Below are positions 2,265-40,575 of a stretch of DNA of 64,000 bases, in pieces. The notes under the pieces were generated by a model, which saw nothing but the letters and a program-made list of their open reading frames with translations, was not told where the DNA came from and made no database searches. How positions within the stretch are numbered: position 1 is the first letter of the stretch; every line of letters begins with the position of its first letter. This stretch comes from Candidatus Marinacidobacterales bacterium (GTDB lineage: Bacteria > Acidobacteriota > Vicinamibacteria > Marinacidobacterales > SMYC01). Both the position numbers and the translations under genes were made by a program. The stretch spans positions 628,162 through 692,161 of the forward strand of contig CBDCYI010000009.1 of the NCBI GenBank assembly GCA_965224085.1, given 5' to 3'.

Positions 2265-2361
2265 TAGCCCGGGCCCGCGGGTGCTTCCGCTATTAAGTGT
2301 TGGGAGTATGGTGCTAAGGCTTTTGGTTACAACAAATTACAGCCCAATTAGCGCTCGTTAC

Positions 2362-2424: not shown

Positions 2425-3237
2425 CGGTATTGTCAAGTTGACGTTGAGCGAGCGAACCTATTGCGTCGAGCTGACTTCCTTTGCTCTCATCGGACGGCAC
2501 AGGTTACCTCCTGCCAGACGATGAAAGCGCGGTCTCGTAGCTCCCGATGATGATGCGCTTGCAACAAATGCCGTCCGACGCGAAAGAGGTTTTGCACGAG
2601 TCCATGCACGGTCAAGAATCGTTGCGCCTGCCCAGGAGCTTTAAACTTCCGCATCTGTCGTTCCCGTTGTCGCGTCGGTTCGTGCGAGACTTCGGCTAGG
2701 TTGTTTCTGTACTGGTCAGTGTCGTGGACGACGGACGGCATGACCTCGCGGTGAGCGGCACTGTAGCTTCTCAGTTTGTCGGTGACCAGCTGCCAGGGCG
2801 GACGGCCTTGCCCTTTCAACAGCTTGCGGAAGAATCGTTTGGCGGCTTTCTGATCACGGCGAGGCTGGACGAGGATATCAATCACATCACCATCTTGGTC
2901 TACCGCGCGCCAGAGGTATTGGCGTTCGCCTTGTATCTTTATGAAGACCTCGTCCAGGAGCCACGTGTCACCAAGGCGACCCTGCCGACGCTTCAGTCGC
3001 CGAGCGTATTCCGGCCCGAACTTGATGCACCAAAGTCGGATCGCTTCGTAGGAAACCGTGATGCCTCGCTGAGCAAGCAGCTCTTCGACGTTTCGAAAGC
3101 TCACGCAGAATCGGTGGTAGAGCCAGACGGCGTGGCTGATGATTTCCGGTGGAAATCGATAGCCGTGGTAGCTTGGCGCATCGGTCTTCATTGGACCATT
3201 CTGTCAGTCACCAGCTCAATTTGACAGCAATGGCACC
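2425..3237 (-). mobile_element. IS6-family insertion sequence, about 810 bp, with imperfect terminal IRs of about 17-24 bp.
   Basis: A 234-aa IS6/IS26-like transposase lies inside. The left end ttgtcaagttgacgttgagc versus the reverse complement of the right end ctgtcaaattgagctgg match at about 12/17. The size fits the IS6 family (~0.8 kb). Confidence 0.65.
2487..3191 (-). CDS. IS6-family (IS26-like) DDE transposase.
   Basis: MKTDAPSYHGYRFPPEIISHAVWLYHRFCVSFRNVEELLAQRGITVSYEAIRLWCIKFGPEYARRLKRR...DEVFIKIQGERQYLWRAVD...VTDKLRSY... is collinear with IS26 Tnp26 motifs. Confidence 0.85.
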   Translation of the reverse strand: MKTDAPSYHGYRFPPEIISHAVWLYHRFCVSFRNVEELLAQRGITVSYEAIRLWCIKFGPEYARRLKRRQGRLGDTWLLDEVFIKIQGERQYLWRAVDQDGDVIDILVQPRRDQKAAKRFFRKLLKGQGRPPWQLVTDKLRSYSAAHREVMPSVVHDTDQYRNNLAEVSHEPTRQRERQMRKFKAPGQAQRFLTVHGLVQNLFRVGRHLLQAHHHRELRDRAFIVWQEVTCAVR

Positions 3238-3472
3238 GCCCGTGCGGGCGGAGGTCATCGGGGAGTGACCGAAATCGTTCGTTCACTCGAAAGTACCCTT
3301 CGCGGGAAGTGTGCAGGAGCGTGTAGTGCGGGAAAGCCGCACGCTGCGTGCGATGTGGCGGGGGCTGGAAACGGACTTACGGTGCGGCTAGTGAGGCACT
3401 CCCACAGGAAACGGGGAGAAACAGATAGGCCGCGCCTACGGAGCACCGCGCCAGCCCTCGACCCTACCGGGA

Positions 3473-7579: not shown

Positions 7580-8397
7580 GGCGTTGTTGCACCGCTCTTG
7601 GCTGAGCGCGAAATCTACCCTATGGTGGTGGCCGAGGTAATGTTCGACCATGAAGTATCCCAAGCGCAGCCAGTACAAACACGCGAAACAGAAGAAGTAC
7701 CACGTTTCCAACTGGGCGGAATACAACGAAGGGCTGCGCCGCCGGGGCGATTTGACGGTTTGGTTTGACGAGGAGGCAATCGCGAACTGGAAGGCCGACA
7801 AGAGCGGTAAGCTTGGCGGTCAACGGGTCTATTCAGAGATGGCGATTGAAACGGGCCTGGTTGTCCGGATGGTGTACAAGCTTGCCTACCGCCAAACCGA
7901 AGGCTTCTTGCACTCGATCGCCTCGCTTCTCCGGCTGTGTATCGAGATCCCGGACTACTCGACGTTGTGTCGGCGGTCGAGGCTGCTCCGCAAGAAGCTG
8001 CGGATTCGGAAAGCCGCAAGCAATCAACCAATCCACCTGATGATCGATAGCACGGGCTTGAGGATTCATGTTGGAACCACCCGCAAACCGCCAAAGCAGC
8101 GCGCCTGGCGCAAGTTGCACATCGCCGTTGATCGCAAGACCGGCAACATTGTTGCGTCCGAACTGACGGTGTCACGAGCTCGCGACGCAACGCGAGTCCC
8201 CCCTTTGCTAACACAGATTCAAGCACCTATAGCGTCGGTGGCGGCGGACAGTGCATACGACAAGGAAGCGGTCTACGAAGCCATCGAAGCGCACAGCCCT
8301 GAACGAAGGACGCGCGTGGTGATTCCGCCGCAACGAAACGCCACGCTCAGTCAGAATTCGAACACCGCAATGCGGGAACGCGACCGCCATATTCGTG
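7580..8397 (+). mobile_element. IS5-family element type B, 3'-truncated copy (left IR GGCGTTGTTGCACCGC plus 5' 75% of the transposase). It was cut by insertion of IS5-A at 8398.
   Basis: Identical left end and ORF to the full copy at 15884-16969. Homology stops at ...cgccatattcgtgc, where the IS5-A IR begins. Confidence 0.85.
7650..8397 (+). pseudogene. IS5-B transposase, C-terminally truncated (about 249 of 320 aa).
   Basis: MKYPKRSQYKHAKQKKYHVSNWAEYNEGLRRRGDLTVWFDEEAI... matches the 320-aa ORF at 15952-16914 up to ...RERDRHIRA. Confidence 0.85.
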
Positions 8398-9480
8398 CCT
8401 TGGTGCACAACTCGCGATTTCGGTCCACAATTGTCCTTTACTCACGGATTCGAGGTTCCCCATGAGCATTTTCAAACGCACTCAGCGGAAGTATGTGAAG
8501 AAGGCCTATCGCGTGAGGAATTGGCGTGAATATGAGGCGGGTCTACGCAATCGCGGGAGCCTGACCGTCTGGATCTCGCTCACCGCCGGCAAGCTTGTGA
8601 ACTGGGACGCGCCCCGGCCGAGGAGGAGGAAACCGGGCCGTCAACGCAAGTACTCGAACCACGCCATCGAGACGGCTGTCACCCTGGGCATGGTGTTTCA
8701 TCTGTCATCTAGGCAGAGCGAGGGATTGCTGCGGTCGTTGTTCGCTCTGATGAAGCTAGACAATGATGTGCCCGATCACACCACGATCTCGAGGCGCAAG
8801 GCGAAGCTGGATAAGGTCCCCTTCTACCAAGACAAGCAGAAGACGCCGTTGCACATCTTGATCGACAGCAGCGGTCTCGCTGTCCACGCCGGCCAGCTGC
8901 GCAGAGCACCAAATAGCAGGGACTATCGCAAGCTCCATCTGTGTGTCGACGAGCAGACGGGCGAAGTCGTCGCCGGCGAGCTGACGAGCAAAAGAGCCCG
9001 CGATTCATCGCAGGTTGCATCGCTTGTCGGACAGAGCGACAGTCCCATCTCATCGGCCAGAGCTGACACCGCATACGACGCCAGCGGCGTCTATGAGGCA
9101 ATCGAGAATCACAGCGCTCATCGCTCGCCGAGGGTGCTGATACCGCCGCGCAAGGGCGCCCAGCTCGCATCGGGGCCGGCGAGCAGCCGACAGCGCAATC
9201 GCAACATTGCAGCACAAGCTCGGCTCGGCAAACGAAAGTGGCACACAGAATCGGGCTACAGCAAACGGAGCAAAGTCGAGACAACGTTCCATCGCTACAA
9301 GGCTATCGTGGGCTCAGCGATGCGAGCGAGAGGGTTGGCGGCACAAAGAGTCGAGGCAAGGATCGGGTGCAAGATTCTCAACACGATGACGGCGCTCGGG
9401 ATGCCTGATAGCGAGATGATCGGATGATGGGAGTCGGGGCCAAGCGAGCTCTCGGCCTCTATCGGAGTTGTGCACCAAGG
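8398..9480 (+). mobile_element. IS5-family element type A, complete copy (1083 bp).
   Basis: IRs CCTTGGTGCACAACTC at both ends. It is inserted into IS5-B on one side and into hsdS on the other. Confidence 0.9.
8462..9427 (+). CDS. IS5-family DDE transposase (type A), 321 aa.
   Basis: Same protein as 5240-6205 with about 5 aa differences. Confidence 0.9.
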   Translation: MSIFKRTQRKYVKKAYRVRNWREYEAGLRNRGSLTVWISLTAGKLVNWDAPRPRRRKPGRQRKYSNHAIETAVTLGMVFHLSSRQSEGLLRSLFALMKLDNDVPDHTTISRRKAKLDKVPFYQDKQKTPLHILIDSSGLAVHAGQLRRAPNSRDYRKLHLCVDEQTGEVVAGELTSKRARDSSQVASLVGQSDSPISSARADTAYDASGVYEAIENHSAHRSPRVLIPPRKGAQLASGPASSRQRNRNIAAQARLGKRKWHTESGYSKRSKVETTFHRYKAIVGSAMRARGLAAQRVEARIGCKILNTMTALGMPDSEMIG

Positions 9481-14505: not shown

Positions 14506-14512
14506 GCCCGAG

Positions 14513-15867
14513 GGTACTTTCGACTGACACTCCCGGCCGAAGGCATTTTTCATGATATGGATTGATCGGGAACGAGGCTGAAGCCGAGTCGGGTAGCTTT
14601 GCGTCGGAGATTACTCAGGAGGCGTTGCTGGTATTGCCTTTCATAGGCGTCCTGACCGAGCTCAATGAACTCCTCTCCAGTCGCAAGCATGCGGAAGTAG
14701 ATGGTCGCTATTTTACGGGCGGTAGCTGTGATGGCCTTTGGAGCACCTCGTCGCGATCGGATTCGTCGATAGAAAGCGCCGAGCGCGGTTTGGGTATTGC
14801 GGACAGCGCACGCGGCGAGGCGAAAGAGTTTTGCAGCACGACTGGAGCTCATTGGGGTGGCCCGGCGAAAGATTCGACCAGCGGACTCCTTATTATTCGG
14901 TGCGAGAGCTAGCCATGAGGTGAAGTGCTTGTCACTTTTCCACGGGCTCATGTCGCAACCGGTTTCTCCTACGAGCTGCAGAACGGCATAGCTACCTAAG
15001 CCGGGAACCCTGGTTAGGTCCACCCCCGTGAGTCCCAATAGAGACTCAGCGAGCGGAAAGCGCGGCCCGTTGCCGCTACGCGCTCGCCGTGTCCGTGGTT
15101 TCGGCTTAGGCCGAGCGTCCTGAGGCCGGGTCTCCAATTTGGACAGGCATCTCTCGATCCGCTTGTCACAGTCTTCCATTTTCTCTTGATAGAAATCGTA
15201 CAACTCCACCGACTGTTGAAGAGCGAAAACATGCTCGCTCCGATAGTTACCTTCTAAGGCTTTCGCGATCGTGGCCTCATCGTTGTGGCAACGTTCATGC
15301 CTCAGTTTTGCTAGGTCACGAGGATCTCGCTCTCCTCTCAAGATCGCTCGGATGATCGCAAGGCCGGTGACTCCGGTCACGTCGCGCAGGACGTGTTGTA
15401 GCTGGAGCCCCATTTGGTTGAGCGCTTTGTGCATATGCTGAATGTGGCGAGCCGCTGACTCCACCAGCGAGCTTCGTTGGCGGGTGTATGCCCTTAGCTC
15501 GCAAATCGCCGATTCCGGCCGAAAGGTTTTTGGGAGTAGCCCGAATGTATGCAGCTGTTGCAGCCACTCCGCATCCGACACGTCTGACTTGCGCCCAGAT
15601 ACGTTTTTCACTTTGCGAGCATCGACCAGATAGACTTCAAATCCCTCGTCTTCCAACAACTCGTACAGTGGAATCCAATAAACTCCGGTCGACTCCATCG
15701 CCACCGTGCACACGCCGCACGCCTTCAGCCAATTGGCCAGCTCTCGCAGCGAGCATACAAAGCTCTGAAACGTGCGGACATGTTCGCCCTCAGGAGTGCG
15801 CCCCTTCGGGACTGCCGCCACGATTGACTCCGCTCCAATATCAATCCCTGCAGCATCTAGATTTACC
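14513..15867 (-). mobile_element. IS110-family element type a, 1355 bp, with no obvious IRs and very short non-coding ends.
   Basis: Identical in length and about 99% in sequence to 20102-21456. Its ends were defined by where the two copies diverge from their flanks (...gtcgaaagtacc / ggtaaatctag...). Confidence 0.8.
14550..15866 (-). CDS. IS110-family (DEDD) transposase, about 438 aa. The true start codon is uncertain.
   Basis: ...NLDAAGIDIGAESIVAAVPKG... (N-terminal DEDD region) ...TGVYWIPLYELLEDEGFEVYLVDARKVKNVSGRKSDVSDAEWLQQL... C-terminal transposase_20-like region. Confidence 0.8.
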   Translation of the reverse strand, partial: VNLDAAGIDIGAESIVAAVPKGRTPEGEHVRTFQSFVCSLRELANWLKACGVCTVAMESTGVYWIPLYELLEDEGFEVYLVDARKVKNVSGRKSDVSDAEWLQQLHTFGLLPKTFRPESAICELRAYTRQRSSLVESAARHIQHMHKALNQMGLQLQHVLRDVTGVTGLAIIRAILRGERDPRDLAKLRHERCHNDEATIAKALEGNYRSEHVFALQQSVELYDFYQEKMEDCDKRIERCLSKLETRPQDARPKPKPRTRRARSGNGPRFPLAESLLGLTGVDLTRVPGLGSYAVLQLVGETGCDMSPWKSDKHFTSWLALAPNNKESAGRIFRRATPMSSSRAAKLFRLAACAVRNTQTALGAFYRRIRSRRGAPKAITATARKIATIYFRMLATGEEFIELGQDAYERQYQQRLLSNLRRKATRLGFSLVPDQSIS

Positions 15868-15883: not shown

Positions 15884-16969
15884 GCGTTGTTGCACCGCTC
15901 TTGGCTGAGCGCGAAATCTACCTATGGTGGTGGCCGAGGTAATGTTCGACCATGAAGTATCCCAAGCGCAGCCAGTACAAGCACGCGAAGCAGAAGAAGT
16001 ACCACGTTTCCAACTGGGCGGAATACAACGAAGGGCTGCGCCGCCGGGGCGATTTGACGGTCTGGTTTGACGAGGAGGCAATCGCGAACTGGAAGGCCGA
16101 CAAGAGCGGTAAGCCTGGCGGTCAACGGGTCTATTCAGAGATGGCGATTGAAACGGGCCTGGTTGTCCGGATGGTGTACAAGCTTGCCTACCGCCAAACC
16201 GAAGGCTTCTTGCACTCGATCGCCTCGCTTCTCCGGCTGTGTATCGAGATCCCGGACTACTCGACGTTGTGTCGGCGGTCGAGGCTGCTCCGCAAGAAGC
16301 TGCGGATTCGGAAAGCCGCAAGCAATCAACCAATCCACCTGATGATCGATAGCACGGGCTTGAGGATTCATGTTGGAACCACCCGCAAACCGCCAAAGCA
16401 GCGCGCCTGGCGCAAGTTGCACATCGCCGTTGATCGCAAGACCGGCAACATTGTTGCGTCCGAACTGACGGCGTCACGAGCTCGCGACGCAACGCGAGTC
16501 CCCCCTTTGCTAACACAGATTCAAGCACCTATAGCGTCGGTGGCGGCGGACAGTGCATACGACAAGGAAGCGGTCTACGAAGCCATCGAAGCGCACAGTC
16601 CTGGACGAAGGACGCGCGTGGTGATTCCGCCGCAACGAAACGCCACGCTCAGTCAGAATTCGAACACCGCCATGCGGGAACGCGACCGCCATATTCGTGC
16701 AATCGAAAGACACGGCCGACGTGAATGGTACAAGCTCTCAGGCTGCACCGAGCGAAGCATGGTGGAGAACGCGGTCTATCGTTACAAGGCGATCATGGGG
16801 CCCGAGATGCGGGCTCGAACGTTGGCGAGGCAACGAGTTGAACACCGAATTGGGTGCGAGATACTCAACAAGATGACCGCGCTCGGCATGCCCGATACTT
16901 ACTGCGCCGGGTGACTCTCCGACCGGCACAGGGAGGTCAGCGATTTGCTCCGGGCCGTGCAACAACGCC
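15884..16969 (+). mobile_element. IS5-family element type B, full-length reference copy (1086 bp) with IRs GGCGTTGTTGCAC(C/G)GC.
   Basis: Left and right IRs found. Three other copies in the window share the ends. Confidence 0.9.
15952..16914 (+). CDS. IS5-family DDE transposase (type B), 320 aa.
   Basis: Same architecture as the type A transposase (KRSQYKHAKQKKYHVSNWAEYNEGLRRRGDLTVW...). Intact ORF. Confidence 0.9.
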   Translation: MKYPKRSQYKHAKQKKYHVSNWAEYNEGLRRRGDLTVWFDEEAIANWKADKSGKPGGQRVYSEMAIETGLVVRMVYKLAYRQTEGFLHSIASLLRLCIEIPDYSTLCRRSRLLRKKLRIRKAASNQPIHLMIDSTGLRIHVGTTRKPPKQRAWRKLHIAVDRKTGNIVASELTASRARDATRVPPLLTQIQAPIASVAADSAYDKEAVYEAIEAHSPGRRTRVVIPPQRNATLSQNSNTAMRERDRHIRAIERHGRREWYKLSGCTERSMVENAVYRYKAIMGPEMRARTLARQRVEHRIGCEILNKMTALGMPDTYCAG

Positions 16970-17184
16970 ACGACGATGTGAAGTCCAGGCTACGCGTACG
17001 TGCGGCGGGTAACGGCCGTTCCATGGAAGAGGAGGCGCGCTTGATCCTCCGGGATGCGGTCGAACGCAGGCCGAGTTCCAATAACCTCGCAGACATCATC
17101 CGCGCGCACTTCGGGCCATCCAAGGGCGTGGATCTGGAGTTGCCACCGCGCGATGCGGGCCGAGAGCCACCGTCCTTCGATTGA
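16970..17184 (+). CDS. StbC/FitA-like ribbon-helix-helix antitoxin that has lost about its first 10 codons to the IS5-B insertion. The remaining frame starts inside the IS right IR.
   Basis: ...DDVKSRLRVRAAGNGRSMEEEARLILRDAVERRPSSNNLADIIRAHFG... matches plasmid-stability/VapB-type antitoxins, which begin M..LTIRNLDDEVK. Confidence 0.65.
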
Positions 17185-19900: not shown

Positions 19901-20101
19901 AAGCCGCATGAGTATTTTGACCTCACGAGTACGTCGTCTACCATCACCACGAGAGGAATCATCAAGGCAAGGAGAATCTGCTGCTGTTCCCAGCCAGCGA
20001 CCAGTTACCTCAGTCCGAGCGCAAGGTGCGCTCCCGTGAACGGCTTGGCGGGCTGCTACGTTTCTACCATCGGGAAGCCGCATGAGTATTTTGACCTCAC
20101 G
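19895..20101 (+). repeat. Two perfect 33-bp direct repeats (atcgggaagccgcatgagtattttgacctcacg) at 19895-19927 and 20069-20101, bracketing 141 bp. The second abuts the IS110-a left end and supplies the in-frame ATG of its transposase ORF.
   Basis: Exact repeat read directly from the sequence. Confidence 0.85.
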
Positions 20102-21419
20102 GGTAAATCTAGATGCTGCAGGGATTGATATTGGAGCGGAGTCAATCGTGGCGGCAGTCCCGAAGGGGCGCACTCCTGAGGGCGAACATGTCCGCACGTT
20201 TCAGAGCTTTGTATGCTCGCTGCGAGAGCTGGCCAATTGGCTGAAGGCGTGCGGCGTGTGCACGGTGGCGATGGAGTCGACCGGAGTTTATTGGATTCCA
20301 CTGTACGAGTTGTTGGAAGACGAGGGATTTGAAGTCTATCTGGTCGATGCTCGCAAAGTGAAAAACGTATCTGGGCGCAAGTCAGACGTGTCGGATGCGG
20401 AGTGGCTGCAACAGCTGCATACATTCGGGCTACTCCCAAAAACCTTTCGGCCGGAATCGGCGATTTGCGAGCTAAGGGCATACACCCGCCAACGAAGCTC
20501 GCTGGTGGAGTCAGCGGCTCGCCACATTCAGCATATGCACAAAGCGCTCAACCAAATGGGGCTCCAGCTACAACACGTCCTGCGCGACGTGACCGGAGTC
20601 ACCGGCCTTGCGATCATCCGAGCGATCTTGAGAGGAGAGCGAGATCCTCGTGACCTAGCAAAACTGAGGCATGAACGTTGCCACAACGATGAGGCCACGA
20701 TCGCGAAAGCCTTAGAAGGTAACTATCGGAGCGAGCATGTTTTCGCTCTTCAACAGTCGGTGGAGTTGTACGATTTCTATCAAGAGAAAATGGAAGACTG
20801 TGACAAGCGGATCGAGAGATGCCTGTCCAAATTGGAGACCCGGCCTCAGGACGCTCGGCCTAAGCCGAAACCACGGACACGGCGAGCGCGTAGCGGCAAC
20901 GGGCCGCGCTTTCCGCTCGCTGAGTCTCTATTGGGACTCACGGGGGTGGACCTAACCAGGGTTCCCGGCTTAGGTAGCTATGCCGTTCTGCAGCTCGTAG
21001 GAGAAACCGGTTGCGACATGAGCCCGTGGAAAAGTGACAAGCACTTCACCTCATGGCTAGCTCTCGCACCGAATAATAAGGAGTCCGCTGGTCGAATCTT
21101 TCGCCGGGCCACCCCAATGAGCTCCAGTCGTGCTGCAAAACTCTTTCGCCTCGCCGCGTGCGCTGTCCGCAATACCCAAACCGCGCTCGGCGCTTTCTAT
21201 CGACGAATCCGATCGCGACGAGGTGCTCCAAAGGCCATCACAGCTACCGCCCGTAAAATAGCGACCATCTACTTCCGCATGCTTGCGACTGGAGAGGAGT
21301 TCATTGAGCTCGGTCAGGACGCTTATGAAAGGCAATACCAGCAACGCCTCCTGAGTAATCTCCGACGCAAAGCTACCCGACTCGGCTTCAGCCTCGTTCC
21401 CGATCAATCCATATCATGA
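20082..21419 (+). CDS. IS110-family (DEDD) transposase, 445 aa as predicted. The ATG comes from the flanking 33-bp repeat.
   Basis: MSILTSRVNLDAAGIDIGAESIVAAVPKGR... is identical to the copy at 14550-15866. Confidence 0.8.
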   Translation: MSILTSRVNLDAAGIDIGAESIVAAVPKGRTPEGEHVRTFQSFVCSLRELANWLKACGVCTVAMESTGVYWIPLYELLEDEGFEVYLVDARKVKNVSGRKSDVSDAEWLQQLHTFGLLPKTFRPESAICELRAYTRQRSSLVESAARHIQHMHKALNQMGLQLQHVLRDVTGVTGLAIIRAILRGERDPRDLAKLRHERCHNDEATIAKALEGNYRSEHVFALQQSVELYDFYQEKMEDCDKRIERCLSKLETRPQDARPKPKPRTRRARSGNGPRFPLAESLLGLTGVDLTRVPGLGSYAVLQLVGETGCDMSPWKSDKHFTSWLALAPNNKESAGRIFRRATPMSSSRAAKLFRLAACAVRNTQTALGAFYRRIRSRRGAPKAITATARKIATIYFRMLATGEEFIELGQDAYERQYQQRLLSNLRRKATRLGFSLVPDQSIS

Positions 21420-21913: not shown

Positions 21914-23485
21914 ATGATTAAAACGAATCGAAATCGTATCGGAAACCTTGCTTTGCTAACAGGTATTCTGCCTTGCCTAATTTGCTGGCAGAGCAGCTAT
22001 CTCTTCGCTCAGCACGTTGATTTGAATGTCAGTACAAAGACAGAGAGCTCTGACAAGCCTGTTGAATTGAGCGCGCCATCGGTAACGGAGCACACCATTA
22101 CAATGGATGGAGAATCCATAAACTACAGCGCTACTGTAGGTTATATGATTCAAACGGATGCAGATAACAAGCCCATTGGCTACTTTTTCTACACCGCATA
22201 CACAAAGCAGGATGAGGATTCCGTTTCTCGTCCGTTGACTTTCTGCTTCAACGGCGGACCAGGAAGCTCCTCGATCTACCTCCACATGCTGAACGTCGGG
22301 CCCCAAAAGGCCGTGCTTCTGAAAGACGGCAATACTCCGGCACCACCACCCCGTATGGTGGACAACGTAGATACATGGCTTGCCTTCACCGACCTCGTAT
22401 TCATCGATCCAATAGGCACAGGGTTCAGTTTTCCTCACCCAGGAGCGGACACGAAGCAATTCTGGGGTGCTGCAGCGGATGCCGAATCCGTTAGCGATTT
22501 CATTCGCATGTACATCACCGAGAACGCTCGCTGGCTGTCGCCGATTTTCGTGGCCGGTGAGAGTTATGGTGGCATCCGCGGTGCCCTGGTCGCGGAAGAG
22601 CTACAGAAAAATCGTCACATCAAATTAAATTTAAACGGTCTCATCTTTATCTCACCAGCTTATGATGGGCAGAGTCTGGCAACGAGCAAGCACAATCCTA
22701 CGTACCTCTCACAGTATTTTCCGACTTACGCCACGACTGCCTGGTACCACAAGAAACTGGATGACGACTTGCAGGGTGATTTCGACAAACTGGTCACGGA
22801 AGTGACGACATGGGCTAGCGAAGATTATATGGTGGCGCTCATCAAGGGCGACAAGCTCGATGATTCCAAAAAGGAAGAGATTGCCAGCCAGATGGCCCGC
22901 TACACCGGATTGTCCGAAGACTTCATTCTGGAGAAGAATCTTCGAATCACTTCCGCGGAATTCAGAGCAGGACTCTTGCGCGATGAGGGCATAAGTCTGC
23001 ACCGCGCCGATGCTCGATTCGAAGACGGAGCCTATGACTTGGCGAGGACTCTATCTCCACTATTTAACCACTACATCAGGAACGTCCTCGGGTTCGAAAC
23101 GAACAAAGCGTATGTCACGGGATGGTGGGCGTGTGTCGAGCGAAAGATAGAGTTCAATGAGCCGTGTTTCTCTAGCAGTGGTCTTCGTCCATGGCCATAC
23201 ACCGAAGGTACTGCTCCTTTCTCGGTCGTTCCCAACCTGAGTGAAGCAATGAAGAACAACAGGAATATGAAGGTCCTCGTCGCTGCGGGATACTACGATT
23301 ATGCCTGTCCCTTTGCGACCATAGACTATGCGATCGATCAACTACTCCTGAAACCTGAGTTGCAAAAAAACCTCGTTCGTCGCTACTACCAGGGAGGTCA
23401 CATGGTCTATATATCTCAGATCGAGATGACGAGATTCACCAAAGACGTGAAGGCATTCATCGTGAATTCCACAACTTCCGATTGA
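21914..23485 (+). CDS. Secreted S10-family serine carboxypeptidase-like protein, in a markedly low-GC (about 47-50%) gene.
   Basis: FCFNGGPGSSS and GESYGG motifs plus an N-terminal signal peptide. The GC of this gene is far below the flanking ~65%. Confidence 0.75.
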   Translation: MIKTNRNRIGNLALLTGILPCLICWQSSYLFAQHVDLNVSTKTESSDKPVELSAPSVTEHTITMDGESINYSATVGYMIQTDADNKPIGYFFYTAYTKQDEDSVSRPLTFCFNGGPGSSSIYLHMLNVGPQKAVLLKDGNTPAPPPRMVDNVDTWLAFTDLVFIDPIGTGFSFPHPGADTKQFWGAAADAESVSDFIRMYITENARWLSPIFVAGESYGGIRGALVAEELQKNRHIKLNLNGLIFISPAYDGQSLATSKHNPTYLSQYFPTYATTAWYHKKLDDDLQGDFDKLVTEVTTWASEDYMVALIKGDKLDDSKKEEIASQMARYTGLSEDFILEKNLRITSAEFRAGLLRDEGISLHRADARFEDGAYDLARTLSPLFNHYIRNVLGFETNKAYVTGWWACVERKIEFNEPCFSSSGLRPWPYTEGTAPFSVVPNLSEAMKNNRNMKVLVAAGYYDYACPFATIDYAIDQLLLKPELQKNLVRRYYQGGHMVYISQIEMTRFTKDVKAFIVNSTTSD

Positions 23486-23599: not shown

Positions 23600-25092
23600 G
23601 CACGCTACTGAAAACGAGACCAAGGGCCTGGGAAGGCATATGGTCTATTTAAGGTGCTTCCGCCATCAAGTGATGGGATGGACTCCTCCGCTGACATAGA
23701 CGGCATCGATGTGCCAAAGTCAGTCGAAAGAACGCATCGAAAAAGGAGGAGTTCCGAATGAAAGATACGACGATCGCTGTGGATCTTGCAAAGAACGTCT
23801 TCGAGATTGCCATCTCGCGCGAAGCGGGGAAGGTGTCCAAGCAACTCCGTGTGAGTCGACCTAAGTTGGTGTCGTTTTTTGCGAAACAGAGCGCTGCCAC
23901 CGTGCTTCTCGAAGCCTGCGGCTCGGCTCACTTCTGGGCAAGGACGTTGCGACGGTTGGGACACGACGTCGTCCTGCTCCCACCTCACCTCGTAAGGCCG
24001 TATCGACGCGGGAGCAAGAACGACCGCGCGGACACCAAAGCTTTGCTCGAGGCTTACCGGAACGAGGAGATTCTTTCGGTGCCCATCAAGTCCGTGCGCC
24101 AGCACACCCTCGCCGCGCTCCATCGCCTACGCTCAGGATGGCTCTCCACACGGACCGCACGCATCAATGCCGTACGCGGGGTCCTGCGCGAGCTCGGACT
24201 CTTCATCCCCAAGGGCGCTCACTTCGTCGTGCCCGCCATCTCCGAGCTCGTCGAAGACGCTGATTCTGATTTGCCCGACGTGCTCCGTCCGCACCTGCGT
24301 GATGCGTGCTCCGAGATTCGAGAGCTCAAGGACAAGTGCGCTGGCATCGAGCACGAGCTCAAGGCGCTCACCAAGCAGCTTCCTGAGGTGCAACGACTTC
24401 TCACCATTCCCGGCATCGGACTTCTGACCGCGACCGCCATCGTCGGCTTCGTTGGGGATCTGCGCCGCTTCCCATCGGGACGCCGCTTCTCGAGTTACCT
24501 CGGCCTCGTTCCCAAAGAGAACTCCAGTGGTGACATTCGCCGCCTCGGGCGCATCACCAAGCGTGGCGACTCCTACCTCCGTACGCTCCTCACGCAGGGC
24601 GGACGCGCCGTGCTCCGAGCGGCCAACGTCAGCAAGAGCCCGCCCGACAAGCTCCGCGCCTGGGCGCGGAAGCTCCACCGCTCGCGGGGACACAACAAAG
24701 CCGCGATTGCTGTCGCCAACAAACTCGCCCGGATAGTCTGGGCCGTCTCCACCCGCGAGAGTGAATTCCAGTCGGTGCCCGCGGCCGCATAGAGGCTCCA
24801 CTTTCGTGTTTTCCTTCTTCCCTTCCAACAGAGGCTGCGACGATACCCATCCAACTGATGGCGTACCGGTCGGACCGGCGCGGGGTCAAGCCGATAGCAA
24901 CACTGGCCCTCAGAGGTCGCTCAAAGTGATTGGCTCCTCGCGCGCGGATTTTCCGTCATGGCCCGGAGCACCCAAGACGCTCCTCACTGAGGCCGTAGAT
25001 ATGTTTGCAGTCTGACCCACTCGTCACCGATTTGGACGAGCAGCTCTGAGGAAGACTTTTTTGAGAAAGGTGTTGATTGAGGAGTCCAGATA
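23600..25092 (+). mobile_element. IS110-family element type b. The left end is approximate. It has a ~300-bp non-coding right end after the transposase.
   Basis: Contains the 344-aa IS110-family transposase. The right end was defined by the tandem-duplication junction ...gaggagtccagata. Confidence 0.6.
23758..24792 (+). CDS. IS110-family (DEDD) transposase type b, 344 aa.
   Basis: MKDTTIAVDLAKNVFEIAIS... (DEDD N-terminus) ...LTIPGIGLLTATAIVGFVGDLRRFPSGRRFSSYLGLVPKENSSGDIRRLGRITKRGDSYLR... (C-terminal HhH/transposase_20). Confidence 0.9.
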   Translation: MKDTTIAVDLAKNVFEIAISREAGKVSKQLRVSRPKLVSFFAKQSAATVLLEACGSAHFWARTLRRLGHDVVLLPPHLVRPYRRGSKNDRADTKALLEAYRNEEILSVPIKSVRQHTLAALHRLRSGWLSTRTARINAVRGVLRELGLFIPKGAHFVVPAISELVEDADSDLPDVLRPHLRDACSEIRELKDKCAGIEHELKALTKQLPEVQRLLTIPGIGLLTATAIVGFVGDLRRFPSGRRFSSYLGLVPKENSSGDIRRLGRITKRGDSYLRTLLTQGGRAVLRAANVSKSPPDKLRAWARKLHRSRGHNKAAIAVANKLARIVWAVSTRESEFQSVPAAA

Positions 25093-25657
25093 TGGTGACA
25101 TTCGCCGCCTCGGGCGCATCACCAAGCGTGGCGACTCCTACCTCCGTACGCTCCTCACGCAGGGCGGACGCGCCGTGCTCCGAGCGGCCAACGTCAGCAA
25201 GAGCCCGCCCGACAAGCTCCGCGCCTGGGCGCGGAAGCTCCACCGCTCGCGGGGACACAACAAAGCCGCGATTGCTGTCGCCAACAAACTCGCCCGGATA
25301 GTCTGGGCCGTCTCCACCCGCGAGAGTGAATTCCAGTCGGTGCCCGCGGCCGCATAGAGGCTCCACTTTCGTGTTTTCCTTCTTCCCTTCCAACAGAGGC
25401 TGCGACGATACCCATCCAACTGATGGCGTACCGGTCGGACCGGCGCGGGGTCAAGCCGATAGCAACACTGGCCCTCAGAGGTCGCTCAAAGTGATTGGCT
25501 CCTCGCGCGCGGATTTTCCGTCATGGCCCGGAGCACCCAAGACGCTCCTCACTGAGGCCGTAGATATGTTTGCAGTCTGACCCACTCGTCACCGATTTGG
25601 ACGAGCAGCTCTGAGGAAGACTTTTTTGAGAAAGGTGTTGATTGAGGAGTCCAGATA
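25093..25657 (+). repeat. Head-to-tail tandem duplicate (565 bp) of the 3' end of IS110-b: the last 88 codons of the transposase plus the whole ~300-bp right-end non-coding region.
   Basis: 24528-25092 matches 25093-25657 nearly exactly. The duplicated partial ORF is at 25061-25357. Confidence 0.9.
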
Positions 25658-25879
25658 TGTGGCTACGCTGCGAGAGGCATCTGACTGCTTGTGTCTGTTG
25701 GCCCCCTACGAGCGCCACCGAACGTGATCACGATCGTTCCTTCTCGTCTTGACGACCTGACCATAGAGAGCTGCCGGGCCGAAGACACGACGAGCGACCT
25801 TCTCGTAGAAATCGAATCCGTCGGTGACAATCAACGGAAGACCCTGGAAATCCATCAAGAAGACGAGCCCACCATGAGC

Positions 25880-27049: not shown

Positions 27050-27592
27050 GTGTCTCTTCCGGGGATGGTCGAAACCCCTCGCCTTTAGGCGAAGAGAAGA
27101 TCGTGGTATTGTGGTCGCGTGCGTCACTACAGGCACGGAGCGCACACGAAAACGGACCTAAAAGCGCACATCGTTTGGATACCGAAATATCGTAAAAAGG
27201 TTTTGATCGGTCCAGTAGCGGTTCGTGTGCGCGATCTGATTCGTCAGATCGCGATGGAACATGAGCTGCACATAATCTCGGGTAAGGTTGCACGCGACCA
27301 CGTCCACGTGTTCGTATCCTACCGACCACACCAGGACCTGAGTAGGATCGTGCAGTGGCTAAAAGGAATAAGCTCCCGAGTACTCCTTCAGGAGTTTGCT
27401 CACCTGAGGAAGAAGTTTTGGGGCCGGCACTTCTGGGCCCGAGGATATCTGGCGGTGAGTTCAGGAAGCATAACGGACGAGATGGTAAAGGAGTACATAG
27501 ACTCCCAGGATGGCGAGCCTCTTCACGACGACAGTCAATTTCCAATTGACAGCCCTTGAAGCCACCGCCTTCTAGGCGGTGGTTGTTCACTT
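27050..27592 (+). mobile_element. IS200/IS605-family minimal element (~543 bp) nested inside IS5-B, with subterminal hairpins at both ends.
   Basis: Left-end hairpins ggggatggtcgaaacccc and ctcgcctttaggcgaag. Right-end hairpin ccaccgccttctaggcggtgg. The insert replaces 2 bp of IS5-B sequence with no TSD, which is typical of Y1 transposition. Confidence 0.75.
27119..27559 (+). CDS. tnpA: IS200-type Y1 HUH transposase TnpA, 146 aa.
   Basis: KAHIVWIPKYRKKVL...HELHIISGKVARDHVHVFVSYRPHQDLSRIVQWLKGISSRVLLQEF...FWARGYLAVSSGSITDEMVKEYIDSQ shows the HuH motif (HVHVF), catalytic Y and a conserved C-terminus. Confidence 0.9.
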   Translation: MRHYRHGAHTKTDLKAHIVWIPKYRKKVLIGPVAVRVRDLIRQIAMEHELHIISGKVARDHVHVFVSYRPHQDLSRIVQWLKGISSRVLLQEFAHLRKKFWGRHFWARGYLAVSSGSITDEMVKEYIDSQDGEPLHDDSQFPIDSP

Positions 27593-39487: not shown

Positions 39488-40575
39488 GGCGTTGTTGCAC
39501 CGCTCTTGGCTGAGCGCGAAATCTACCTATGGTGGTGGCCGAGGTAATGTTCGACCATGAAGTATCCCAAGCGCAGCCAGTACAAGCACGCGAAGCAGAA
39601 GAAGTACCACGTTTCCAACTGGGCGGAATACAACGAAGGGCTGCGGCGCCGGGGCGATTTGACGGTCTGGTTTGACGAGGAGGCAATCGCGAACTGGAAG
39701 GCCGACAAGAGCGGTAAGCCTGGCGGTCAACGGGTCTATTCAGAGATGGCGATTGAAACGGGCCTGGTTGTCCGGATGGTGTACAAGCTTGCCTACCGCC
39801 AAACCGAAGGCTTCTTGCACTCGATCGCCTCGCTTCTCCGGCTGTGTATCGAGATCCCGGACTACTCGACATTGTGTCGGCGGTCGAGGCTGCTCCGCAA
39901 GAAGCTGCGGATTGGGAAAGCCGCAAGCAATCAACCAATCCACCTGATGATCGATAGCACGGGCTTGAGGATTCATGTTGGAACCACCCGCAAACCGCCA
40001 AAGCAGCGCGCCTGGCGCAAGTTGCACATCGCCGTTGATCGCAAGACCGGCAACATTGTTGCGTCCGAACTGACGGCGTCACGAGCTCGCGACGCAACGC
40101 GAGTCCCCCCTTTGCTAACACAGATTCAAGCACCTATAGCGTCGGTGGCGGCGGACAGTGCATACGACAAGGAAGCGGTCTACGAAGCCATCGAAGCGCA
40201 CAGCCCTGGACGAAGGACGCGCGTGGTGATTCCGCCGCAACGAAACGCCACGCTCAGTCAGAATTCGAACACCGCCATGCGGGAACGCGACCGCCATATT
40301 TCGTGCAATCGAAAGACACGGCCGACGTGAATGGTACAAGCTCTCAGGCTACACCGAGCGAAGCATGGTGGAGAACGCGGTCTATCGTTACAAGGCGATC
40401 ATGGGGCCCGAGATGCGGACTCGAACGTTGGCGAGGCAACGAGTTGAACACAGAATTGGGTGCGAGATACTCAACAAGATGACCGCGCTCGGCATGCCCG
40501 ATACTTACTGCGCCGGGTGACTCTCCGACCGGCACAGGGAGGTCAGCGATTTGCTCCGGGCCGTGCAACAACGCC
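39488..40575 (+). mobile_element. IS5-family element type B, fourth copy (1088 bp), carrying a frameshifted transposase gene.
   Basis: Both IRs present. There is a 1-bp insertion (atatttcgtg versus atattcgtg) relative to the reference copy. Confidence 0.9.
39557..40520 (+). pseudogene. IS5-B transposase inactivated by a +1 frameshift at about 40305.
   Basis: The ORF breaks into 39557-40330 and a downstream frame. It is otherwise about 99% identical to 15952-16914. Confidence 0.85.

Follow-up and report, generated by a model that had tools for sequence, protein, structure and literature searches.

An IS1111-family insertion sequence of an uncultured acidobacterium with a tandemly duplicated right end, probably a misfire of its own recombinase

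The DNA studied here is a 64,000-nucleotide stretch, called the window throughout, from contig CBDCYI010000009.1 (positions 628,162 to 692,161) of a Marinacidobacterales-like acidobacterium. It contains an insertion sequence (IS) of the IS1111 family in which the last 565 bp are present twice, head to tail (Table 1). The transposase/recombinase gene (tnp) of this element is intact, and its product scores 2.2e-11 for PF01548, the N-terminal DEDD (RuvC-like) domain, and 1e-25 for the C-terminal domain PF02371. Transposases of the IS1111 family have 330–350 aa, which the 344-aa product fits, and share the C-terminal motif GL-P----S(t)G (PMC11187229). The sequence GLVPKENSSG in the C-terminal domain of the window protein (Ser257-Gly258) fits this motif. 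The best named relative is the ISPa25 transposase, with 47% identity over 99% of the length. The non-coding DNA is unevenly distributed, with 300 bp downstream of the gene versus 87 bp upstream (23671–23757), and the longer stretch is thus on the side typical of IS1111. On sequence grounds, the element is a new, unnamed member of the IS1111 family (IS110 superfamily) of the ISPa25 type. It is set apart from its relatives by a different target and by a T in place of C at the first core position in all predicted guides and in the right junction.

The boundaries of the element were obtained by comparing five filled sites (the site shared by the window and L003, and those of L001, L002, L006, and L009; loci in other sequences are denoted by L and a number) with uninterrupted copies of the target. 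The right terminus is ...GAGTCCAGATA, followed by the TG of the target. At all five filled sites, the flanks read GTGCTTCCGCCATCAAR-TG on the left and TG-TKGSTAC on the right, and empty sites read ...AAGTG-TTG.... The ~17 nt that precede every full copy are more variable than the IS interior. The right half of the target has the consensus TG-TTGCTACGC, which is the complement of the loop strand at 24893–24904, differs among copies, and is present at empty sites. These outer stretches are joined without an IS at many empty sites (GTGCTTCCGCCATYAAR-TG-TTG(G/C)...), for example at 2170 on the minus strand of L008, at 4059 in L009, and at 2281 in the window. Because the outer 17 nt and 13 nt are variable and joined at empty sites, the element runs from TGATGGGA... 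to ...GAGGAGTCCAGATA, and the boundaries placed initially at 23654–25670 from the extents of BLAST matches to L001 and L002 were dropped. In its single-copy form, the allele present in L003 and L004, the element is 1422 bp long (23671–25092) and ends in CCAGATA. Insertion is site- and orientation-specific and occurs without target duplication. The original prediction, made from the letters of the window, had the second copy starting directly after the right terminus. The comparison of filled and empty sites bears this out, and the other copies used to define the termini gave no sign of a right end lying well inside 24793–25092.

The sub-terminal inverted repeat is 10 bp long and perfect in the window element and 13 bp long in relatives. 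Sub-terminal repeats in IS1111 elements are usually 11–13 bp (7–17 bp in another account), with terminal extensions of 7 nt on the left and 3 nt on the right. By the boundary convention adopted here, the extensions of the window element are 8 nt on the left (TGATGGGA) and 4 nt on the right (GATA). The left–right difference of 4 nt is as reported for IS1111. The absolute sizes are off by one on each side, an offset that may be a matter of convention.

The segment 24528–25092 is identical to 25093–25657, with 0 mismatches over 565 bp by direct string comparison, and a spacing of 565 was also obtained in a separate repeat search of the window. An exact repeat of this length cannot be a product of chance. 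The match extends 0 bp leftward and 2 bp rightward (TG, 25658–25659) past the edges of the unit. The unit comprises the last 265 bp of the transposase open reading frame (ORF) and the whole 300-bp non-coding region, 24793–25092. The coordinates given for the head-to-tail copy in the original prediction are exact, and the content claimed for it, the transposase 3′ end plus a non-coding region of ~300 bp, agrees with the ORF and repeat coordinates. The rearranged element thus described has an intact transposase, two identical predicted guide-RNA genes, a 3′ gene fragment lacking the catalytic Ser, and one left end facing two right ends.

Table 1. Features of the IS1111-family element and its target (positions refer to the window unless a locus is named)
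Feature	Position	Strand	Remarks
IS1111-family element as in the window	23671–25657	+	1987 bp; bounds from filled versus empty sites
Left half of target	23654–23670	+	GTGCTTCCGCCATCAAG; flank, outside the IS
Left sub-terminal inverted repeat	23679–23688	+	TGGACTCCTC; reverse complement of GAGGAGTCCA at 25079–25088 and 25644–25653
Transposase/recombinase gene	23758–24792	+	344 aa, intact; PF01548 DEDD_Tnp_IS110, PF02371 Transposase_20
Internal look-alike site	24523–24535	+	TCCAG-TG-GTGACA; the duplication starts at its TG (24528)
Duplicated unit, copy 1	24528–25092	+	tnp 3′ 265 bp, putative bridge-RNA gene, and right end; from identity with 25093–25657
Predicted bridge/seek RNA gene, copy 1	24832–25013	+	~180 nt; from conservation, structure counts, and guide–flank co-variation
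Predicted target-loop strands, RNA copy 1	24893–24904; 24919–24928		GAUAGCAACACU; GCUCAAAGUG
Predicted donor-loop strands, RNA copy 1	24953–24959; 24997–25003		CCGUCAU; AGAUAUG
Internal right-end copy	25079–25092	+	sub-terminal repeat plus GATA; then TG-GTGACATTC, not flank
Duplicated unit, copy 2	25093–25657	+	holds truncated ORF 25061–25357, which spans the junction and lacks the catalytic Ser
Predicted bridge/seek RNA gene, copy 2	25397–25578	+	profile match
Target core TG and right target half	25658–25670	+	TGGCTACGCTG; flank DNA
Target-motif sites	window 2281–2302; L006 2068; L008 2152–2223; L009 4059; L010 6829; L014 5405, 4912, 1288	minus for L014	

The joint between the two copies reads ...GAGGAGTCCAGATA/TG/GTGACATTC, a succession of right end, YG, and foreign sequence that is shared by all natural right junctions of the family. 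Because the terminus and the TG core were set by both filled and empty sites, the junction coincides to the base with the IS terminus. The other breakpoint falls at the TG of the internal look-alike site, which overlaps the codons AGT GGT of the catalytic Ser257-Gly258, and the second copy of the gene fragment is therefore without the nucleophile. As compared to the natural target TCAAG-TG-TTGCTA, the look-alike matches at 9 of 13 positions and is the sole TG-core site with this score on the top strand of the 1422-bp element. As compared to the left junction TCAAG-TG-ATGGGAT, it matches at 10 of 14 positions, tied at the top of ~1400 positions with two sites inside the RNA gene. Its right side, TG-GTGA, is the genuine left end of the relative L049. 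Were the duplication random, either breakpoint coincidence would be expected only about once in 500–1000 cases.

A guide RNA had been proposed for the right-end non-coding region. The covariance search against existing RNA models produced nothing: an Rfam scan of 19–29 kb at E ≤ 1 gave no match. Because Rfam has no matching family, the evidence for the RNA rests on a comparison built here. A protein-based scan of metagenome contigs yielded 80 loci with transposase relatives 51–80% identical. The non-coding regions of the two closest relatives, L018 and L019, and of the window contain long invariant blocks and two short hypervariable stretches, which in a consensus fold of the three sequences would form opposite sides of one internal loop. 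A ~195-nt profile (nhmmer) detects a same-strand counterpart downstream of tnp at ~70 loci (E ~1e-63 for most, 3.5e-4 for the weakest), as well as a homologous RNA in ISPa25 (E 1.9e-19). In the window, the profile has exactly two matches, 24828–25023 and 25393–25588.

The structure was tested by transferring the three-sequence fold to a 57-sequence MAFFT alignment and counting pairs; RNAalifold run on the same alignment gave a poor consensus and was set aside for the three-sequence fold. Standard pairs are found in 76.6% of cells, versus 30–42% when the partners are slid, and 0 of 500 shuffles reach the observed paired fraction or covariation score. Pairs changed on both sides do not stand out (the observed number is reached by 40 of 500 shuffles). 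Compensatory changes occur in helices 5 and 9, the stems flanking the loops. These data support the assignment of a conserved, structured, two-loop bridge/seek RNA to the right-end non-coding region, with its expression and its binding by the recombinase predicted. L019 has ~480 bp of additional sequence (2964–3440) separating the conserved RNA from its right sub-terminal repeat, so the distance from RNA gene to right end varies within the family.

Co-variation between the loop strands and the flanks is the decisive evidence that this RNA is likely a guide. The matching was limited to relatives with identifiable ends. The 5′ loop strand of L019 predicted the right flank CG-AAGTTA before the flank was located, and this sequence was then found at the right end. 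Across relatives, the 5′ strand, taken as its reverse complement, agrees with the right flank (GTTGTTA, GGGTGGTT, CTTGTTA, GAAGTCTG, TAGTTA, ACGAGTCAC, and others), and the 3′ strand matches the left flank (TCATC, GCAGA, TGCAAG, TTCGA, TCGGA, and others). The mean longest match between guide 1 and the right flank is 6.4 nt, as compared to 4.1 nt when permuted, and that between guide 2 and the left flank is 3.8 nt, as compared to 2.8 nt; in each case, 0 of 5000 permutations reach the observed value. With a structured RNA predicted downstream of ~70 homologous transposases and loop strands that co-vary with the flanks, the proposal of a right-end guide RNA stands.

These matches allow the loops of the window RNA to be assigned. 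In the target loop, GAUAGCAACACU would pair with the top strand AG-TG-TTGCTA, and GCUCAAAGUG would correspond to ..CAAG-TG. In the donor loop, CCGUCAU (CCAUCAU in relatives) would be complementary to A-TG-ATGG of the left end, and AGAUAUG (AGAUAYG with relatives included) would equal the right end plus the core. Co-variation of the donor loop is seen in few cases only, the ends being too conserved for statistics: L066 has AGACACG and the right end CCAGACA, ISPa25 has AUAUACG and CCATATA, and the window element has AUG and a TG junction. In almost all relatives (L018–L097), the left junction is flank-TG-ATGG and the right junction is CCAGATA-CG-flank. Guide 2 of the relatives ends in CG, and AGAUACG is the 3′ strand of their donor loop; in the window element, the base is T at all of these places. 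Since the guide and donor strands of the relatives have CG versus the TG of the left junction, the first core base differs between the donor and target sides. The core-identity rule of IS621 does not explain this difference.

Other alleles of the locus bear on how the duplication should be read. An exact-product look-up of the transposase returned three contigs. L003 (ENA ERZ25072076, an 8.7-Mb contig at 29x; same place as L004) is the same locus with one copy of the 565-bp unit and flanks 99.98% identical, and L001 and L002 represent a different insertion site. A third allele of the locus corresponding to window 23654–25670 is a 5′-deleted IS remnant in L098 (5740–6260; ENA ERZ25067264, 45x), in which a 3-bp TCC microhomology links window positions 23661 and 24571. 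This remnant also carries ~8 small deletions, several of them in the predicted bridge-RNA stems, and 5.7 kb of its left flank is 100% identical to the window. Position 22151 is C (CAA) in the window and likewise in L098 and is T (TAA) in L003/L004, where the TAA splits a Peptidase_S10 gene (21914–23485) into ORFs of 79 and 399 aa. Because L003 differs from the window at a few bases, these are distinct haplotypes, and the population is structurally polymorphic at the IS. The idea that a new copy had inserted beside an old remnant was rejected, as the two copies of the unit are 100% identical and the L098 remnant starts at 24571 rather than 24528.

A scan of species-representative genomes with the right-end 20-mer gave 12 further loci ('Candidatus Marinacidobacterales' and Acidobacteriaceae metagenome-assembled genomes) and one Streptomyces genome (L005). 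These loci hold full, 5′-truncated, and fragmentary copies, and none has two right-end 20-mer matches 565 bp apart, which places the source genome outside the set of representatives scanned. Fragments were located with the right-end probe; left-end fragments were not sought. A solo 3′ fragment in L014 (5851–6586) begins at window-equivalent 24533 and is fused to an apparent lipoprotein gene; the 165 bp past its right end are identical to L006, and its left joint has neither TG nor a target half. Fragments of ~223 bp, from window-equivalent 24881 to the right end, occur in L007, L011, L013, and L017, with shorter ones in L008 (132 bp) and L016 (49 bp). The right-end fragments are 99% identical to the IS and lie within a composite repeat, with TTTATGGTCTATTTCAAAAGGGCCGAG... 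to their left and TTGCTACGCGGCTGCGGGCAG... to their right, that is found in several copies in several genomes. The 20-mer also occurs at L012:4805–4835, in a more distant Acidobacteriaceae element with the junction TG-TTGC, and at L005:612–631, in the Streptomyces contig.

The duplication was probably produced by the element's own RNA-guided recombinase, misfiring at the internal look-alike site. The recombinase–RNA complex would have joined the genuine right end to TCCAG-TG-GTGACA, yielding CCAGATA/TG/.... In the simplest route, the right junction of one sister chromosome would undergo an excision-type exchange with the pseudo left junction of its sister, leaving one product with a duplication and the second with a deletion. 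Alternatively, (a) a 565-bp mini-circle could form within one molecule and then integrate into an intact copy by homology; (b) a circle could insert into a resident copy at its pseudo-target, after which the repeated left part would be lost by homology; or (c) a donor-by-pseudo-target deletion could take place within a tandem dimer. The literature on related systems offers three precedents, and the misfire would be that of a known mechanism, with nothing outside the current picture of IS1111 elements. The IS621 complex inserts off target at target- or donor-like sites with the right core and, rarely, causes deletions and inversions (PMC11208160). The same complex also performs excision, in which both loops take part in binding each junction (PMC13626964), and ISPpu9 forms circles from alternative ends, including circles with a 3′-tnp fragment and the RNA gene (PMC12288879). 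In L021 (1660–1751), the right terminus of a relative occurs three times in tandem, each joint consisting of right-end-CG plus sequence that follows an internal CG. This is the same logic as in the window duplication at a 32-bp scale, and these right-end-CG joints are counted as support for a recombinase origin; the repeats lie at the end of a short-read contig and may be an artefact.

Several observations weigh against a recombinase origin. The look-alike fits the guides only moderately, guide 1 matching AGTG plus three of the next six positions, and the scoring window was chosen after the site had been seen. No promoter for the RNA was found by a consensus scan. The sequence does not tell the four routes apart. 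Junctions can be recognized by signatures: CCAGATATGGTGACATTC marks the duplication or a 565-bp circle, CCAGATATGATGGGATGG a normal circle or dimer, and CTCCAGTGATGGGATGG and CTCCAGTGTGGCTACG the reciprocal products. No reciprocal junction was present in any sequence examined, nor was the circle junction (right end-TG-left end) found in any of them. Exact-product look-ups of four versions of the junction-spanning ORFs gave no record elsewhere. The duplication is seen in the window only, and two other assemblies of the same locus are without it.

These last points are the strength of the view that the duplication is an assembly or consensus artefact, or a minority molecule represented by a read through a circular or concatemeric intermediate, with the chromosome itself single-copy. 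The independent L003/L004 assembly is single-copy despite its nearly identical flanks, L098 carries only a remnant next to a left flank identical to that of the window, and the junction is in no other record. The right end/TG/GTGAC joint must nevertheless occur in the reads, since assemblers do not invent new junction sequence, and the window differs from L003 at a few other bases, as expected of a distinct haplotype. The joint may be chromosomal in part of the population or confined to minority molecules, and in the latter case it would still be a recombinase product. We consider an artefact or minority molecule unlikely. Quite unlikely, in turn, is an ordinary tandem duplication that arose through slipped replication or through microhomology-mediated unequal exchange, in which the transposase would play no part and the coincidence with the IS terminus would be due to chance. 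The 2-bp TG microhomology at the junction is compatible with such an event, and microhomology-mediated rearrangement is known at this very locus from the TCC joint of the L098 deletion. Two base pairs of homology are, however, minimal for a 565-bp slippage, and the right breakpoint lies exactly at the IS terminus and the left one at the best internal mimic of the target and left junction. The original prediction had offered an aberrant circle-junction event or slipped replication as the source of the repeat. The former agrees with both breakpoints, which fit a recombinase event, whereas the latter fares poorly, with microhomology of only 2 bp and both ends on functional sites.

A more elaborate view holds that the 565-bp unit is a mobile, non-autonomous module, made up of the guide-RNA gene, the right end, and the pseudo left end, and that a mini-circle of it re-inserted beside its parent. 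ISPpu9 provides a module of the same make-up, ssr9-'tnp, that forms abundant circles, and solo 3′ IS fragments are scattered in related genomes, the one in L014 starting 5 bp from the same point. Yet the left junction expected of such a module, TL-TG-GTGAC, is absent from all of the solo fragments, the one in L014 runs 165 bp beyond the right end, and the discovery of the fragments with a right-end probe entails ascertainment bias. The right end/TG/flank joint is also a poor re-insertion target, and we regard such a module as very improbable. Returning to the misfire by the element's own recombinase, an extension of it that we put forward only tentatively, and consider doubtful, is that the duplication is a fossil of RNA-guided self-targeting. 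A left-junction mimic in the catalytic Ser-Gly codons would have been used, and a module of the 3′-tnp fragment, guide RNA, and right end would have been split off and doubled, a natural route to guide-RNA-only, non-autonomous IS1111 satellites. Given one left end and two right ends in the rearranged element, excision with the inner right end would set free a normal circle, and a solo 565-bp RNA module would stay behind at the site.

The target motif, GTGCTTCCGCCATYAAGTG-TTG, also makes up the first ~22 nt, which are conserved, of three or more different repeat families. L008 has two copies of it that face apart with 34 bp between them, beside small unrelated genes (DUF169, disulphide isomerase). 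A search of the window for an uninterrupted 30-nt target at up to three mismatches found none, and the site at 2281 was located by half-site searches. The carrier of the motif may be the end of another mobile element or an attC-like site. As the target of the window element, attC itself was rejected because the target does not fit GTTRRRY, the attC consensus used for comparison, though the flanks of relatives look attC-like. Many close relatives have right flanks ending in GTTAGGC-like sequence, as attC does, a likeness to the ISPa25 group.

The surroundings contain further repeats. The window is dense in other mobile elements (20082–21419, 14510–15211, 16329–16973, 39934–40575, 8027–8398, 27119–27559, and 2487–3191), which include a different IS110-family transposase (445 aa) and a second, inverted copy, several DDE_Tnp_1 copies, an IS200-like Y1 element, and an IS240/IS6-type DDE element. 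An unrelated 435-bp tandem duplication in perfect register, 99.5% identical, is present at L011:3779–4648 in a Marinacidobacterales genome.

Our analysis delimits a previously unnamed IS1111-family element from an uncultured acidobacterium, with assignments for its ends, target, core, and both predicted RNA loops. The 57-sequence comparative set, in which guide–flank co-variation is visible, can serve the cataloguing or reprogramming of IS1111-type bridge recombinases. The duplication, if real, would document, in nature, an event at a mimic site that was either off-target or of an aberrant excision type, and would bear on the specificity limits of bridge recombinases and the birth of RNA-only modules. 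The family-wide difference of T versus C at the first core base, between the donor and target sides, is a concrete mechanistic question.

Among known systems, the closest is the group of ISPa25, ISKpn4, and ISPst6, which are discussed together as attC-targeting members of IS1111 in the study of seekRNAs (Siddiquee et al. 2024, PMC11187229). ISPa25, which lies between cassettes of a class 1 integron, carries the homologous guide RNA in the same place downstream of tnp, and its group shares the end type TG-ATGGnATGGACTCCTCC ... GGAGGAGTCCAnATA-YG. The order of the guides, with the one matching the top strand 5′ of the one matching the bottom strand, is that of IS1111 seekRNAs (PMC11187229). Unlike the ISPa25 group, the window element reads GTGCTTCCGCCATYAAG-TG-TTG(C/G)TA, with T rather than C as the first core base; its host is an uncultured acidobacterium, and the window copy has the 565-bp duplication. 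Sub-terminal inverted repeats, asymmetric extensions, and the lack of a target duplication are shared with IS4321/IS5075 of the IS1111 family (Partridge and Hall 2003). These elements, too, insert in one orientation and at a single position of a conserved sequence that other repeated elements carry, but they have another target sequence. The predicted architecture also resembles that of IS621 of the IS110 group (Durrant et al. 2024, PMC11208160; Hiraizumi et al. 2024, 2026), in that two internal loops of two strands each would read the target and donor halves over a 2-nt core. In contrast to IS621, the window RNA would lie in the right end, as predicted for the bridge RNAs of IS1111 elements (PMC11208160), rather than in the left; the guides come in the opposite order, the sub-terminal repeats are long, and the first core bases on the donor and target sides differ in most relatives (T versus C). 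ISPpu9 (Pares-Guillen et al. 2025, PMC12288879) is likewise an IS110-family element with an RNA gene downstream of tnp, its alternative end pairs give circles, and its natural ssr9-'tnp module combines the RNA gene with a 3′ tnp fragment. Duplicated A/A′ and B/B′ boxes delimit the ISPpu9 modules, however, and Ssr9 is dispensable for transposition. In the window element, the second "left end" would instead be a chance mimic in coding sequence, and the product is a tandem duplication rather than a dispersed module.

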